DNA of 5,021 bases from Candidatus Hermodarchaeota archaeon (GCA_048886185.1 JBHLKY010000065.1:1-5021); one strand, 5' to 3'; numbered from the stretch's first letter, positions 439 through 5,021 are shown. The notes: a model not told the origin generated them from the letters alone. Made by a program: numbers and translations.

Positions 439-454
439 TAGAAAAGTTTAAATA
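439..454 (+). promoter_or_regulatory. Archaeal-type promoter: BRE (purine-rich TAGAAAAG) directly followed by TATA box TTTAAATA
   Basis: TTTAAATA at 447-454 matches the archaeal TTTAWATA consensus and is preceded by GAAAAG (441-446). It lies about 80-120 nt upstream of the candidate SBP starts. The AT-rich background lowers specificity. Confidence 0.5.
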
Positions 455-529: not shown

Positions 530-2770
530 TTGATGTGGAGAATTATGACATTTTATGAGCTTCGACTTGTGAAAACGATCAATTCCCGCATATACAAGGT
601 TTTTTCACTAATATTATTCATTATTATTCTTCTACTACCTTATCCAATCACATTTTTGAGGCTTGGAGTCAAGTCACATGGAAAAACTGTTGAAATAGAA
701 ACCCAAACCAAGGAAAATCTCCAGATAAACACAAGAAGAACCTTGAATGGGCTTGAAGTAATCACAATCGGATGTTGGAACTATCTAAACGAATCTGTCA
801 ATTATGATCCAATACGAAGTGCAATTAGAGATGTATCATTTAACCAATGGAGAAGGCATTCACTAATATTCGATACATTAGTAGAGTATGATTCCGAAAC
901 GAAGGAAATTATTCCAAGTCTAGCTAGTCAATGGGTAGTCTCCAATGATAGCACATATTGGGTATTCACTCTTAGAAACGATGTATACTTCCATGATGGG
1001 ACAAAATTCAATGCTTCATCAGTTGTATTCTCTTTTGGGAGACATTGGGACCCATCAAATCCCACATATATGCCTGGAGGAAGTGAAGATGAGCGTGGAA
1101 CAATCGAAATCAAGAGTGAATATGAACTTATATTTCGCTTCAAAAAACCCTTTGCATCATTTATTTATAATCATGCAGCAACACATTATATTATTTCCGA
1201 AACAAGCTTTGATTATGCAACTCTAATGACTCCTATTGGAACAGGTCCTTATAAATTAGATCTATCATCAAGTAATTCAAGCTTTCAAAGCTTAACACGA
1301 AATCTCCATTATTTTAAAGGAATCCCTCCTTTTAAAAAGATTTATTATAGAATATATGACCGATTTGACGAATTAGCGACAGCGATTATCACGAGACAGG
1401 TTGATTTCATTCCAGCTTACTATAATATTGAGGAAATGGTGCAAAACCAAAGTTATTGGATGATAACCACCTCAAACAAAACAAATACAGTACTATTTGG
1501 ATGGATAAATCAAAATAATACACAATTGGCAGATTGGAGAGTGAGAACAGCACTAAATTATGCAATAAACCGAAATGCATTAATTACCCTAAGAAAGGGG
1601 TATGCAACAGCGAGTCAGAGTGTTCTACCGCCAAGCTCCCCCTTCTATGATACCGAAACTACAGGATACCCCTACAATATTGCAAATACGACTAGTCTGC
1701 TTGATGAAGCAGGATATATAGTTCAACGGGATGGCTATCGATTTCACCTGAATCTTGGAGGGATAAATGCTATGGGAGGAAGATTAAATCAGATAAAGGC
1801 AGATTTTGAAACGATAGGAGTGGAAACTGACATTATATTATTTACAAACCTAGCTGAGGGATGGTCGAAATGGATAAACGGAGAGATTGACATCCAAATT
1901 CTCGGAGCCTCGTATGCATTAAATCCACAAGTAGAATATCAGCTATTGCATTCAACAGGAAGTCAGAATTTTGGAAAATATCAAAATGAAGAAGTGGATA
2001 AGTTATTAGCTTTAGGAGAAGAAACACCTGTAATCCAGGAAAGAGAGTATTATTACGCAGCATTACAGAAATTAATCCAACGAGATGCCCCATACCTGCT
2101 TTTAATAAATCTTGATACATTTTATGTAACAACAACTCAAATAGATCCATATATTGGCTATTTCAATGAAAGGTTTGTTTTGAATTATGATCCTCAGATC
2201 ATAATACGGAATAAATTATCATTCGCATCAGATAATCAGATCATATTGGATTATTATAAAATGAAAAATGTGGAGATATCTAATAAAGCAATTTATTTCC
2301 CTTTTACTGATGCAGTAGTAGTTCCCACAAGCTCATTAGTCCTAAAAATGAATATGAGTATGTGTCACAACCTCAGCACATTTTTAACTGGTCAGAATGA
2401 AATAGGAAAATTCTTACAGATTAGTAGTGACCAGGAGAATACTGACTATCGGTTACGGTGGTATTACAATTTATGGGAGGTTAAAAGTGAATCACAATCA
2501 CAGTTAGGGATTTGGCAATACAGAGAAGAATCAGAAAGATGGGAGAAGCTAGACACAATCAAGCAAAATTCAACTCTTCAGTATGTAGAAGTAAAAGTAG
2601 AAGGAGGAAAGGCGCTTCTACGATTTGATGCTGACCAAATCATCCAATTATCCTATAAATTAGTACCTTTTTTCCTAGTTGCCTTGGGAGGATTGGTAAG
2701 TTTTGCAATGGTCACGATTATTTACAATATCAAGAAGATTAAAGAAGTTAGAAAGATGTGTGGACTATAA
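530..2770 (+). CDS. Family-5 extracellular solute-binding protein (OppA/DppA/NikA-like, SBP_bac_5) with N-terminal signal/TM, extra C-terminal extracellular domain and C-terminal TM anchor. True start probably GTG 569 (or ATG 533/545) rather than TTG 530.
   Basis: Family-5 motifs are present: FDTLVEYD…IIPSLASQWVVSND…WVFTLRNDVYFHDGTKFNASSVVFSF, PIGTGPYKL, DWRVRTALNYAINR, YPYN…LLDEAGY, NFGKYQNEEVDKLL…EREYYYAALQKLIQRDAP. N-terminal basic + hydrophobic segment (KTINSRIYKVFSLILFIIILLLPYPI) has no lipobox Cys. C-terminal hydrophobic helix LVPFFLVALGGLVSFAMVTIIY is followed by basic KKIKEVRK. Stop TAA at 2768-2770. Confidence 0.93.
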   Translation: MMWRIMTFYELRLVKTINSRIYKVFSLILFIIILLLPYPITFLRLGVKSHGKTVEIETQTKENLQINTRRTLNGLEVITIGCWNYLNESVNYDPIRSAIRDVSFNQWRRHSLIFDTLVEYDSETKEIIPSLASQWVVSNDSTYWVFTLRNDVYFHDGTKFNASSVVFSFGRHWDPSNPTYMPGGSEDERGTIEIKSEYELIFRFKKPFASFIYNHAATHYIISETSFDYATLMTPIGTGPYKLDLSSSNSSFQSLTRNLHYFKGIPPFKKIYYRIYDRFDELATAIITRQVDFIPAYYNIEEMVQNQSYWMITTSNKTNTVLFGWINQNNTQLADWRVRTALNYAINRNALITLRKGYATASQSVLPPSSPFYDTETTGYPYNIANTTSLLDEAGYIVQRDGYRFHLNLGGINAMGGRLNQIKADFETIGVETDIILFTNLAEGWSKWINGEIDIQILGASYALNPQVEYQLLHSTGSQNFGKYQNEEVDKLLALGEETPVIQEREYYYAALQKLIQRDAPYLLLINLDTFYVTTTQIDPYIGYFNERFVLNYDPQIIIRNKLSFASDNQIILDYYKMKNVEISNKAIYFPFTDAVVVPTSSLVLKMNMSMCHNLSTFLTGQNEIGKFLQISSDQENTDYRLRWYYNLWEVKSESQSQLGIWQYREESERWEKLDTIKQNSTLQYVEVKVEGGKALLRFDADQIIQLSYKLVPFFLVALGGLVSFAMVTIIYNIKKIKEVRKMCGL
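2189..2644 (+). other. ~150-aa non-SBP extracellular domain fused after the SBP fold; resembles beta-rich domains of archaeal surface proteins (PGF-pre-PGF-like pattern)
   Basis: The SBP fold ends near residue 553. The following segment has the pattern IGKFLQI…RLRWYY…LGIWQY…ERWEKLDT…QYVEVKV, which I recall from archaeal surface-protein domains. This is pattern recognition only, with no HMM run. Confidence 0.5.
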
Positions 2771-3330
2771 TGGTTCAAGACGAGACACTTCAGGTTGTTA
2801 CAGTAGAAGAACCAGAGAAACAGACATTCAGTACACGAATAGCTCGAAAAGTTAGAAAGACATTTCGAAACCAGTCAAGTTCGACCACTACTGATCCACT
2901 CCTCCAAGGTACAACATTACAGATATATTGGTACCTATTAACCCATTTACAAGGAATGGCTGGAATTAGAGAAATCCAGAAAACATTAGAGCTCTCCTCT
3001 CCAGGAGCCGTGTCTTATCATATAAATAAATTGATCAAAGCTGGAATAGTATCAAAAAATGAGCATACAGAGAAATATTATGTGAAAGAAGAAGTTAAAT
3101 CAGGAGTATTAGGCCTGTACTTCAGATTAGGACATCGTATGGTTCCACGCTTCACTTTTTATCTGATAATATTCATTTTAGCTACCCTCAGCTTCTTAAT
3201 CTTCCTTCTTACACGTGGAGACCCTTATATATTAGATCCCAGTAATTGGGTTTTTCTGTTCGTCCTAATCTTTGGAATAGTAGTCTTCATCTATGAATCA
3301 CTGAAAATATGGAGAATAAAACCCGAATAA
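2770..3330 (+). CDS. Membrane-anchored winged helix-turn-helix (ArsR-like fold) transcriptional regulator with two C-terminal TM helices, 186 aa
   Basis: wHTH core LQGTTLQIYWYLL…GIREIQKTLELSSPGAVSYHINKLIKAGIVSK…YYV (about 2902-3087), then conserved-looking VPRFTFY. TM1 FTFYLIIFILATLSFLIFLL (3151-3210), a 12-aa loop, TM2 WVFLFVLIFGIVVFIYESL (3247-3303), basic tail. ATG 2770-2772 overlaps the upstream TAA 2768-2770 (TAATG), favoured over the GTG at 2758 used by the ORF track. Confidence 0.88.
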   Translation: MVQDETLQVVTVEEPEKQTFSTRIARKVRKTFRNQSSSTTTDPLLQGTTLQIYWYLLTHLQGMAGIREIQKTLELSSPGAVSYHINKLIKAGIVSKNEHTEKYYVKEEVKSGVLGLYFRLGHRMVPRFTFYLIIFILATLSFLIFLLTRGDPYILDPSNWVFLFVLIFGIVVFIYESLKIWRIKPE

Positions 3331-3375
3331 TCCTAAATTAATCTTCAATTGCACAAAGACCAAGAAGGAAAAGAT

Positions 3376-3380
3376 GAGGA
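3376..3380 (+). promoter_or_regulatory. Shine-Dalgarno-like GAGGA for the beta-propeller gene
   Basis: GAGGA at 3376-3380, 6 nt before ATG 3387. Confidence 0.45.
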
Positions 3381-3386
3381 AAAAAT

Positions 3387-4778
3387 ATGGCGAATGGTAA
3401 AACAAATGTAATGCTGGTAAAAAGGAAAAGACTAATTTTTTTTATGATGTGTTTACTAATTGGCCTAATGACACCAAACATGGTAAATAGTGTTCCAACG
3501 AACGAGGAACAGTCACTACAATTGACCTGGTCAAAGACACTTGACAACCCCACTGGATATGGTTTAATTCCACTCCAATTTCTTTATACAACAGGTGACC
3601 CTTTAGTGAATGAGAGCTATTTTATTACTGGTTTGTATATAGTAAACGGAATAGAAATACCCTGTTTTCTGAAAACTGATTTAAACGGTGATCTTGTATG
3701 GAATCAGTCTTTTATACATCCTTCTAAACCTCAAGGACTCTTGAGAAGTCTTGTTCAGACATCTGATGGGGGATTTGCTCTGAGTGGTTGGATAAAATCA
3801 TCGTTAGGAAATGATTATAATACATACGATCTGTGGATTATAAAAACTGATGGAGATGGAGTTGAAGTCTGGAACCGAACATTTAATGGCCAGAAAGACA
3901 GTTTTGATTATGGCAGCCAAATTCTAGAAACTCCAGATGGTGGATTTTTGATTTCAGGTTGTACTGGAGCTGCTGAAAACTGGGAAATTGATTACTGGTT
4001 AATTAAGCTAAACGGAAATGGCACTGAAATATGGAATAAGACCTATCATCGAATTGGTGCCGACCAGGCAACTGCTCTTGTTCCTTTAAGCGGTGGTAAC
4101 TTCCTAATTAGTGGCTTATCAAGTCAATATTCGACCTCAGAGAATCCTCATTCTATTTGGGTTATAAAAATAGATGAAAATGGAACAGTTATCTGGGATA
4201 AAGTATTCAGTAAAGGAACTGAAACGCTCGGTGCTTGGGAAAGAAATTTGGTGGGAACTAACGACGGAGGTTTTATACTAAGCTATTATCAACGAGCTTC
4301 TTTGCATGTGGGAAAAGATTATTTGGTAGTAAAAGTTGACCAAGAGGGAGAGGTTGAATGGGAGAAAACTATTGGTGGAGATGATTACGATACTCCATCT
4401 GCCTGCCTCCAAAATGAAGCTGGAGATTACTACATAGGTGGTTCTTATGACTCTTCTGAAGGTGAGTATGAAACTGGTGACTTCTGTTTAACAAAATTAT
4501 CCAGTTCAGGAGAGATTCTTTGGCAACAAAAACATGGTGATAGAATAGCAGGTGAAACAATTGTGGATATGAGATTTATTAATGGGGTAAACTCAAATGA
4601 TACTATTGGTGTGTGTGGCCAAGTAAACTTCGCTGGGGACTATTCTTCAGCTAAATGTTGGTTAGGTAGATATGAATATGTTAAAGATATAGATAAACAA
4701 AGTAGTTCATCTGGAATAATAGTTCTTTCCTTAGGACTGGGTATCATTACGCTATTTTGCAAAAAAAGACTTTACTAA
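3387..4778 (+). CDS. Secreted, cell-surface-anchored beta-propeller repeat protein (7 repeats of ~54-57 aa) with signal peptide and C-terminal sorting/anchor signal
   Basis: Signal peptide VKRKRLIFFMMCLLIGLMTPNMVNS. Repeat W-x-K/R-T…T-x-DGG-F-x-x-SG…W-x-x-K-x-D-x-x-G, with Trp at residues 48, 105, 162, 216, 270, 325, 379. C-terminus QSSSSG-IIVLSLGLGIITLF-CKKRLY. Stop TAA at 4776-4778. Confidence 0.88.
   Translation: MANGKTNVMLVKRKRLIFFMMCLLIGLMTPNMVNSVPTNEEQSLQLTWSKTLDNPTGYGLIPLQFLYTTGDPLVNESYFITGLYIVNGIEIPCFLKTDLNGDLVWNQSFIHPSKPQGLLRSLVQTSDGGFALSGWIKSSLGNDYNTYDLWIIKTDGDGVEVWNRTFNGQKDSFDYGSQILETPDGGFLISGCTGAAENWEIDYWLIKLNGNGTEIWNKTYHRIGADQATALVPLSGGNFLISGLSSQYSTSENPHSIWVIKIDENGTVIWDKVFSKGTETLGAWERNLVGTNDGGFILSYYQRASLHVGKDYLVVKVDQEGEVEWEKTIGGDDYDTPSACLQNEAGDYYIGGSYDSSEGEYETGDFCLTKLSSSGEILWQQKHGDRIAGETIVDMRFINGVNSNDTIGVCGQVNFAGDYSSAKCWLGRYEYVKDIDKQSSSSGIIVLSLGLGIITLFCKKRLY
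3516..4679 (+). repeat. Seven protein-level tandem repeats (beta-propeller blades)
   Basis: Aligned blade ends: CFLKTDLNGDLVWNQSF / LWIIKTDGDGVEVWNRTF / YWLIKLNGNGTEIWNKTY / IWVIKIDENGTVIWDKVF / YLVVKVDQEGEVEWEKTI / FCLTKLSSSGEILWQQKH. Mid-blade motifs: QTSDGGF, ETPDGGF, PLSGGNF, GTNDGGF, QNEAGDY. The first and last repeats are degenerate. Confidence 0.85.
4698..4778 (+). other. CTERM-like C-terminal sorting signal (Ser-rich motif + short hydrophobic helix + basic cluster)
   Basis: SSSSG, then 14 hydrophobic residues, then CKKRLY*. The tripartite layout matches PGF-CTERM-type signals, but the PGF motif itself is absent. Confidence 0.55.
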
Positions 4779-4842: not shown

Positions 4843-5021
4843 TTATTTTGATATAATAAATATGTCATAGCCTGAGTTGAGACACATTATACATATCAAG
4901 ATATATGTATTCAGTTCAAATCCAACGTTAAAGCAATAGCTGCAAGGATACCAAAAATAATTACAATTGCCATTCTCGACTTATCATATTAAGAGATAAA
5001 ACTAGCCTTGTTTCTTTCGTT
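4843..5021 (-). pseudogene. Possible disrupted 3' end of a convergent small membrane-protein gene
   Basis: Minus strand from the window edge reads NERNKASFIS*YDKSRMAIVIIFGILAAIALTL. After a frame change near 4923 it continues GFELNTYILICIMCLNSGYDIFIISK* (stop 4843-4845). This gives two TM-like segments but requires one in-frame TAA (4989-4991) and one frameshift. Confidence 0.25.

Follow-up and report, generated by a model that had tools for sequence, protein, structure and literature searches.

A solute-binding protein gene coupled to a predicted membrane-tethered regulator in surface cassettes of Hodarchaeales

A three-gene surface cassette

The window analyzed here, a stretch of 5,021 nt, is the complete contig C65 of a Hodarchaeales metagenome-assembled genome (MAG; 4.84 Mb in 75 contigs, 96% completeness, referred to as G000), whose nearest public relatives are labelled Hodarchaeota, Hodarchaeales or Promethearchaeota. 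It is filled by three co-oriented genes, which encode a membrane-anchored family-5 solute-binding protein (SBP), a winged helix-turn-helix (wHTH) protein with two transmembrane (TM) segments (wHTH-2TM), and a surface beta-propeller. An earlier interpretation of the same DNA (the sequence-only reading) had described an SBP with a C-terminal anchor, an overlapping wHTH-2TM gene and a propeller shortly behind it; all three are present in the sequence. The existence of the cassette is nearly certain, and this report is concerned with how its surface protein may be linked to gene control.

The first gene (530-2770, plus strand; 746 aa) was assigned by a Pfam match (1e-58), by matches to DppA/NikA-type structures in the PDB and by an alignment of 16 cassette SBPs. 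The match to SBP_bac_5 (PF00496) covers residues 126-479 with 199.7 bits against a cut-off of 32.4, and residues ∼103-541 (nt 836-2152) align with the solved structures of DppA, NikA and HbpA over the full bilobed fold. An N-terminal hydrophobic segment precedes this fold; translation more likely begins at ATG 545 than at TTG 530, because the Atlas record begins at residue 6. The fold is followed by an extra beta-rich juxtamembrane domain (residues ∼560-705, nt 2207-2644), for which a structure search of the Atlas returned only generic beta-sandwich neighbours (TM-score ∼0.6), by a TM segment (residues 711-732, nt 2660-2725), and by a basic tail of 14 residues headed by Asn733 (nt 2726-2767). 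In the 16 aligned sequences this asparagine is invariant and the C-terminal domain conserved; with the added domain and tail, the cassette SBPs form a subtype of their own. The window protein carries 11 N-glycosylation sequons.

The stop codon of the SBP gene (TAA, 2768-2770) and the start codon of the second gene (ATG, 2770-2772) have one base in common (TAATG, 2768-2772). This second gene (2770-3330, plus strand) encodes the 186-aa membrane-tethered wHTH regulator, recognized by its structure model, its fold matches and a family profile. The AlphaFold model (51 homologues; mean predicted local distance difference test 83.5) begins with an N-terminal helix, continues with the winged helix (modelled at residues 48-105) and a beta-hairpin, and ends in the TM hairpin, so that both ends of the chain are cytoplasmic. 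An N-terminal extension (residues 1-46) leads into the winged helix (about 47-107, nt 2908-3090), from which residues 106-126 alone, a short beta-hairpin, reach to TM1 (127-149, nt 3148-3216); TM2 follows (157-182, nt 3238-3315), leaving a loop of ∼7 residues outside. The nearest solved folds are the DNA-binding domains of LexA, IclR, ArsR/SmtB and MarR proteins, and the best Pfam and fold matches are of the ArsR, MarR, TrmB and LexA types rather than the OmpR/PhoB type. The HTH_5 match (21.6 bits) falls just short of the Pfam cut-off of 22, and that in NCBIfam reaches 21.5 against 55; the protein contains no cysteine. It thus shows neither a match above the cut-off nor the metal-binding Cys/His sites of ArsR/SmtB metalloregulators.

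The third gene (3387-4778, plus strand; 463 aa), beginning 56 nt after the regulator stop codon, encodes a membrane-anchored surface beta-propeller with SBBP-like repeats, ending in a TM segment and a tail of 5 residues. Its model is all-beta (∼30 strands), the top Foldseek match is the CylK propeller (6e-18), and repeats of ∼52 residues are visible in the alignment. A Pfam search of this protein gave no match at E≤1 and NCBIfam gave a weak match to an SBBP lipoprotein (7e-10, below the cut-off); its BLAST relatives (e.g. at locus L022) do bear PF06739. Here and below, L-numbers denote loci examined and C-numbers contigs of G000 (L008 is C41 and L010 is C17). Homologues of the propeller lie downstream of the regulator in C41b, L015, L016, L023, L029, L030 and L058; C19 has a Pfam-positive SBBP propeller in this position, and L018 a BLAST relative of the latter. 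Since the 56-nt gap holds no operator-like site, the window propeller is probably co-transcribed with the two preceding genes. The C19 group differs, its third gene having a promoter of its own with two copies of the group's operator site (see below). The propeller thus looks like a regulated output, one of the two roles the sequence-only reading had offered for it. Behind it, on the minus strand (4911-4970), there is a 20-codon open reading frame (ORF) for a hydrophobic peptide (MAIVIIFGILAAIALTLDLN), probably a chance occurrence.

Linkage of the surface protein to the regulator

The genome G000 contains four paralogous pairs of SBP and wHTH-2TM genes (one on C65, two on C41, here C41a and C41b, and one on C19), overlapping by 1 or 4 nt, and three further regulator paralogs with other neighbours. 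We searched 24 genomes separately with the C-terminal part of the SBP and with the regulator, and then compared gene order. The SBP gene is followed directly by the regulator gene on the same strand for 25 of 25 SBP matches in 12 related genomes and for 4 of 4 in G000; the linkage is thus conserved in 29/29 pairs across 13 genomes. A comparison of regulator neighbourhoods, for which 80 loci from other genomes were taken in, showed the SBP subtype ending near the regulator start at 12 of them (the genes overlap by 1 or 4 nt, or 2-3 nt separate them); at a 13th (L024) it lies 295 nt upstream. The regulator tree contains a well-supported Hodarchaeales clade, where each G000 paralog pairs with orthologues of other MAGs. 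The cassettes are therefore old paralogs inherited as units.

The sequence-only reading had considered the SBP to be transporter-less. The window encodes no permease or ATPase of the OppBCDF type; as it is an entire contig, it is not enough by itself to establish that oppBCDF is absent. C65 begins with the very 77 nt with which C2 ends, so that C2 probably precedes it (nothing overlaps the other end of C65), and the end of C2 carries an ABC-2-type ATPase and permease and no Opp genes. Likewise, no Opp permease or ATPase homologues were found within 6 kb of the 13 SBP-coupled loci. In fact, ∼20 SBP5 genes in G000 face only six complete Opp/Dpp sets, each with its own SBP, an excess of the kind that had been expected if such proteins were repurposed. 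To this excess belong six anchored SBP5-like genes arrayed in tandem (C2:75577-88035), with no permease adjoining. The datasets containing the window sequence are DNA sediment metagenomes, four of them possibly from the source sample, with no RNA dataset among those listed.

These data also bear on a simpler explanation, in which an ordinary transport SBP feeds one of the six distant Opp/Dpp permeases, and the wHTH-2TM protein is merely a local regulator of the SBP gene whose anchor serves some other input (transporter activity, membrane state) without touching the SBP. Extra OppA paralogs feed permeases encoded elsewhere in many bacteria, and a complete SBP5 fold, six complete Opp/Dpp sets next to many extra SBPs, and a related regulator clade divergent to OppB/C permease genes would all suit such a scheme. 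What makes it unlikely in our view is the 29/29 linkage with its stop/start overlap, the distinct subtype with an added domain and tail, the failure of near matches to the predicted operators (described below) to appear in front of any Opp operon, and the coupling of the same regulator clade and the same TM-tail module to proteins that are not transporter parts.

Indeed, in other Hodarchaeales the gene overlapping the regulator start encodes a Beta_helix/NosD protein (L019-L021, L027, L036) or an SBBP propeller (L022, L031), and the earlier view of the partner as specifically an SBP had to be given up. Common to 23 of 23 partners is a C-terminal module composed of an aromatic-Pro boundary, ∼21 hydrophobic residues, an invariant Asn and a basic tail of 12-16 residues, often ending in E-(Y/F/L)-x-L; other anchored proteins of G000, including the window propeller, have tails of mostly 4-7 residues (mode 6). 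A search of the genome with two patterns describing this module retrieved the four cassette SBPs and three false positives. The identity of the tails tracks that of the regulators and not the class of ectodomain (Spearman 0.38, Mantel p ∼5e-4). For example, beta-helix and propeller tails are 56% identical despite unrelated ectodomains, and the SBP of L038, whose regulator falls in the beta-helix clade, has a tail 44-47% identical to the tails of that clade vs 32% to other SBP tails. As the partners include beta-helix and propeller proteins, the unit is best described as any ectodomain plus a conserved TM-tail plus the regulator, which fits a fixed chassis of adaptor and regulator onto which ectodomains may have been shuffled.

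The C41b SBP and regulator pair is flanked by direct repeats (L008 16094-16397 and 19443-19839; 163 nt at 91%, 52 nt at 77% and 41 nt at 100%). They hold second copies of the promoter region and of the 5' end of the propeller gene that lies downstream, and look like the footprint of an insertion or duplication of the two-gene unit.

The wHTH-2TM family extends well beyond these cassettes. Its profile retrieved 529 cluster representatives at E≤1e-10. The family is archaeal (Bathyarchaeia, Asgard, Nitrososphaerota, Thermoproteota) and so far annotated as hypothetical or generic HTH only. Regulators with an overlapping partner have an N-terminal extension of ∼46 residues; in uncoupled short forms it measures 7-20. 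A word-index search for fusions of the regulator, run over proteins of 327-2000 aa, found none, although it was a weak search that missed the 352-aa fusions of L025 and L028; the best 150 matches of an exhaustive profile search are at most 355 aa long. In the two fusions (L025 5950-7008, L028 6019-7077) wHTH-2TM is joined to a 4-5-TM domain which elsewhere is encoded by a separate downstream gene (L022 6672-7229), suggesting a further membrane partner of the family.

Other members have other neighbours. In Bathyarchaeia and Thorarchaeota (L062-L094) the usual neighbour of the short-form regulator, 45-80 nt behind it, is a gene for a protein of ∼100-130 aa that is hydrophobic at either end; in Thorarchaeota-labelled MAGs an overlapping gene for a 325-aa anchored protein takes its place; these followers are different conserved partners of the family. 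Another regulator paralog always lies 125-193 nt after a gene for a 730-750-aa DUF3160 protein (L010 6090-8988, L033, L040, L043, L047, L051, L060), which has an N-terminal anchor and scores 601 bits to PF11369; in the two cases examined (C17 and L033) a GTTCG..CGAAC-type palindrome is located 5' of the DUF3160 gene. In a sister clade of the cassette regulators (∼255 aa, with ∼110 extra N-terminal residues), the regulator gene is divergent to an OppB/C-type permease pair at 3 of ∼12 loci (L039 3428-6486, L056 3294-6435, L037 1-1737), with neither an SBP nor an ATPase gene beside the pair.

Predicted operators and promoters

Upstream of the window SBP gene we identified a palindrome, GTTCTA-TGAGT-TAGAAC (410-426), that ends 20 nt before a TATA-like box preceded by a putative transcription factor B recognition element (BRE) (AGAAAAG TTTAAATA, 440-454, plus strand). 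The palindrome is predicted to be an operator (GTTCTA-N5-TAGAAC) on account of its uniqueness, of its orthologue and of its equivalents at the paralogs, and the promoter role of the second element from its recurrence and the archaeal consensus. A box of the form (G)TAGAAAA(G/C)(T/C)TTAAATA recurs upstream of most cassette SBP genes, and almost every one of them has a palindrome ending 13-35 nt before its BRE/TATA-like box.

The window palindrome occurs once in the 4.84-Mb genome and, even with up to 2 mismatches, once in the window, and the orthologous locus L015 has GTTCTA-CGTGT-TAGAAC at the equivalent position. The other cassettes have palindromes of their own: CTGTTCAG-N4-CTGAAC in C41a and L016, GTACTAACGTTAGTAC in C41b and L058, and CTGTTCTAAAGTTAGTACAG in C19 and L018. 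Each of the four G000 palindromes is single in the genome and lies 75-120 nt before its own SBP gene; orthologues retain the palindrome of their group, with a varying spacer. A comparable GTWC-containing inverted repeat is present in front of 4/4 cassettes vs 12/1122 other upstream regions. The recognition helix, too, is kept within a group and differs between groups (VSYHINKL, TAAYQINKL, LVYYQIQKL, VVSYQLNKL). GTTCA/TGAAC repeats take the equivalent position in operons with beta-helix- or propeller-coupled regulators, and the promoters beside the C17 and C6 regulator paralogs carry them as well. Across the rest of G000, sites nearly matching one of the four operators showed no pattern, and none lies 5' of an Opp operon.

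Because each cassette has its own palindrome upstream of BRE/TATA, the wHTH-2TM protein is very probably a real transcription factor, as the sequence-only reading had supposed, that would bind DNA as a dimer and regulate its own cassette. We hold this transcription-factor and operator part of the explanation with good confidence. The position of the site upstream of BRE/TATA, by analogy with known archaeal regulators, suggests that it acts by activation. The alternative that the protein has no regulatory role, and serves anchored surface proteins as a membrane adaptor or in their assembly, with the palindromes as unrelated promoter features, could draw on the sub-threshold HTH matches in Pfam and NCBIfam and on the use of winged helices in protein-protein contacts; it is very improbable, given that the fold neighbours are DNA-binding repressors and that the palindromes are group-specific, genome-unique and conserved in position, paralleling the differences between recognition helices.

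The four SBP/regulator/operator sets that coexist in G000 have diverged in parallel, and they resemble the insulated channels of paralogous signalling systems. This resemblance to parallel sensory channels is only suggestive, and yet it is what speaks against reading the cassette as a feedback on abundance or insertion, in which the regulator gauges the amount of its partner in the membrane (e.g. by a tail that sequesters or stabilises it), no external ligand is involved, and the activity of the ectodomain (binding, adhesion, enzyme) is simply the output. Such a feedback would readily accommodate unrelated ectodomains on one common TM-tail, a predicted regulon confined to the cassette itself, and a stoichiometry fixed by translational coupling; overall we regard it as improbable.

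A role of the window palindrome as a terminator was rejected, as it lies ∼455 nt from the nearest upstream gene end and upstream of the predicted TATA box; the 'terminator-like' match at 432-404 in a sigma-70 promoter scan (a bacterial model, not relevant to an archaeon) is this same palindrome. Further upstream in the long intergenic region 5' of the cassette, a stretch of ∼110 nt (153-267) is 78% identical to C39:14412-14521 and partly resembles C35:12345-12412. It overlaps a doubtful minus-strand ORF of 68 aa (148-354) and may represent a short repeat element or else a gene for an RNA; an Rfam scan of the window gave no match at E≤1.

A proposed kinase-free relay and related systems

We propose that in Hodarchaeales these three genes may make up a surface cassette that is self-contained and regulates itself. 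The first gene would provide a bitopic surface protein (here the SBP with its juxtamembrane domain) ending in the TM-Asn-tail module, and the second, by translational coupling, a winged-helix protein mounted on a TM hairpin. With its DNA-binding domain held ∼20 residues from the bilayer, the regulator would sit as a dimer on its own palindrome upstream of BRE/TATA, from where it would control the SBP gene, its own gene and the propeller gene. The state of the surface protein (ligand-bound or merely present) would be relayed to the regulator without a kinase, by contact of the partner TM/tail with the regulator TM hairpin and its ∼46-residue N-terminal extension. Because the regulator exposes almost nothing outside, outside information would have to enter via a partner. 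Among possible partners only the co-translated surface protein is conserved, presumably acting through its TM/tail.

The steps of this proposal differ in strength. The anatomy, the conserved coupling, the paralog-specific palindromes and the module common to several types of ectodomain are observed in the sequences. Binding of the regulator to DNA at the palindromes, activation rather than repression, contact between TM/tail and regulator, and sensing of an external ligand are all what we infer from the comparisons above. We consider the complete chain, from cassette to ligand relay, to be about evenly balanced between true and false. A contact between partner TM/tail and regulator seems just as likely to exist as not, and the sensing of an external ligand is a more tentative proposition, slightly on the doubtful side. 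A complex prediction for SBP residues 575-746 with the full regulator, based on alignments and run without controls, scored 0.06 vs a mark of 0.32, which speaks neither for nor against a contact.

A number of observations weigh against the relay. The SBP fold is complete and six Opp/Dpp transporters are encoded in the genome, so transport via a distant permease may be its function; the sister clade of the regulator adjoins orphan OppB/C permease genes. The correlation of tails with regulators could stem from adjacency and co-inheritance of the coding segments rather than from selection for contact, and the acidic residues that close the tail may owe part of their conservation to a ribosome-binding site used by the overlapping gene. 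As for activation, the location of the site upstream of TATA is a hint and no proof. Finally, C65 stops 243 nt past the propeller gene, which cuts off the downstream neighbours from view.

The proposed relay can be compared with several known systems. Kinase-free bacterial systems in which a tethered regulator works with a membrane partner include ToxR-ToxS, TcpP-TcpH, VtrA-VtrC and CadC-LysP; these regulators combine an OmpR-type wHTH with a single TM and their own periplasmic domain, and CadC and LysP communicate partly via TM contacts. The cassette resembles them in combining a tethered DNA-binding domain with a co-encoded membrane partner and no kinase. It differs in that its wHTH is of the ArsR/MarR/LexA type and is followed by two TMs with a ∼7-residue outside loop in place of a single TM and a periplasmic sensor, and in that the partner gene is upstream and overlapping. 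SgrR, on the other hand, is a wHTH fused to a cytoplasmic SBP_bac_5 domain in one soluble polypeptide. The window SBP has a weak match to it (3.6e-5), and a family-5 SBP fold would serve a winged-helix transcription factor in the cassette as it does in SgrR; the SBP described here, however, is extracellular, anchored and a separate gene product.

In archaea, the closest architecture as described is that of ArnR/ArnR1 of Sulfolobus acidocaldarius, membrane-bound one-component activators with an HTH, HAMP-like and sensor domains and two C-terminal TMs, which act on inverted repeats (TCGAC-N5-GTCGA) in the promoter of their target, the archaellum operon (PMC6396743). An N-terminal HTH with two C-terminal TMs, inverted repeats and control of surface structures (both predicted in our case) are shared features. 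In contrast to ArnR, the cassette regulator has no HAMP-like or sensor region, only ∼20 residues separating the HTH from the TMs; it has an overlapping gene for a surface-protein partner, and its predicted target is its own cassette.

With respect to SBPs, the receivers of their signals listed in a review include chemoreceptors, kinases, cyclic-di-GMP enzymes and Ser/Thr kinases, among them the BasB-BasT and CosB-CosT systems of Halobacterium (PMC8050422). Transcription factors are not among these receivers, and a search of the review's text for 'transcriptional regulator', 'ToxR' and 'one-component' found none of these terms (PMC8050422). As in BasB-BasT, CosB-CosT, LuxP-LuxQ and ChvE-VirA, a transporter-less SBP gene here stands beside a putative membrane signalling gene (29/29 adjacency), and BasB and CosB constitute an archaeal precedent. 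Unlike in the BasB-BasT or LuxP-LuxQ type, the candidate receiver lacks an extracytoplasmic docking domain and is itself the predicted transcription factor. An anchored SBP of Promethearchaeum syntrophicum, also an Asgard protein, is by its description similar to ours in having membrane helices at both ends; it is expressed, N-glycosylated and the main glycoprotein, and was discussed as a possible chemoreceptor or transport component, with no regulator partner described (PMC11284389).

The sequence-only reading knew of no kinase-free relay from receptor to transcription factor described in archaea. This has to be narrowed in so far as membrane-bound archaeal transcription factors are already represented by ArnR/ArnR1; for the wHTH-2TM family or the cassette itself we found no description in open-access papers and preprints. 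The combination of an SBP with a membrane-tethered regulator looks like an undescribed kinase-free link between the surface and gene control in archaea, and the predicted cassette operators and the common TM-tail module are new here.

A broader proposal, to which we give somewhat less credence than to ligand sensing itself, is that Hodarchaeales possess a modular kinase-free mode of signalling. Interchangeable SBP, beta-helix and beta-propeller ectodomains would be set on a TM-tail adaptor, which would control a dedicated tethered transcription factor with an insulated operator. Contact might activate this factor, or its DNA-binding domain might be set free, as happens in SREBP, a eukaryotic membrane-bound transcription factor with a TM hairpin.

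Signalling from the surface to transcription is largely unknown in archaea and especially in the Asgard group. This group includes the Hodarchaeales, which are among the archaea with the closest known kinship to eukaryotes. The cassettes offer a compact, repeated and testable unit for its study: a surface protein with a TM-tail module, a small tethered DNA-binding protein and a paralog-specific predicted operator. Even if the relay is untrue, the uncharacterised archaeal wHTH-2TM family gains from them its first predicted operators and regulons. If it is true, transcription factors would join the receivers of SBP signals, genetic parts would become available in several regulator/operator pairs predicted to be orthogonal, of which G000 has four, and sensor domains would appear to have been shuffled on a fixed membrane adaptor.

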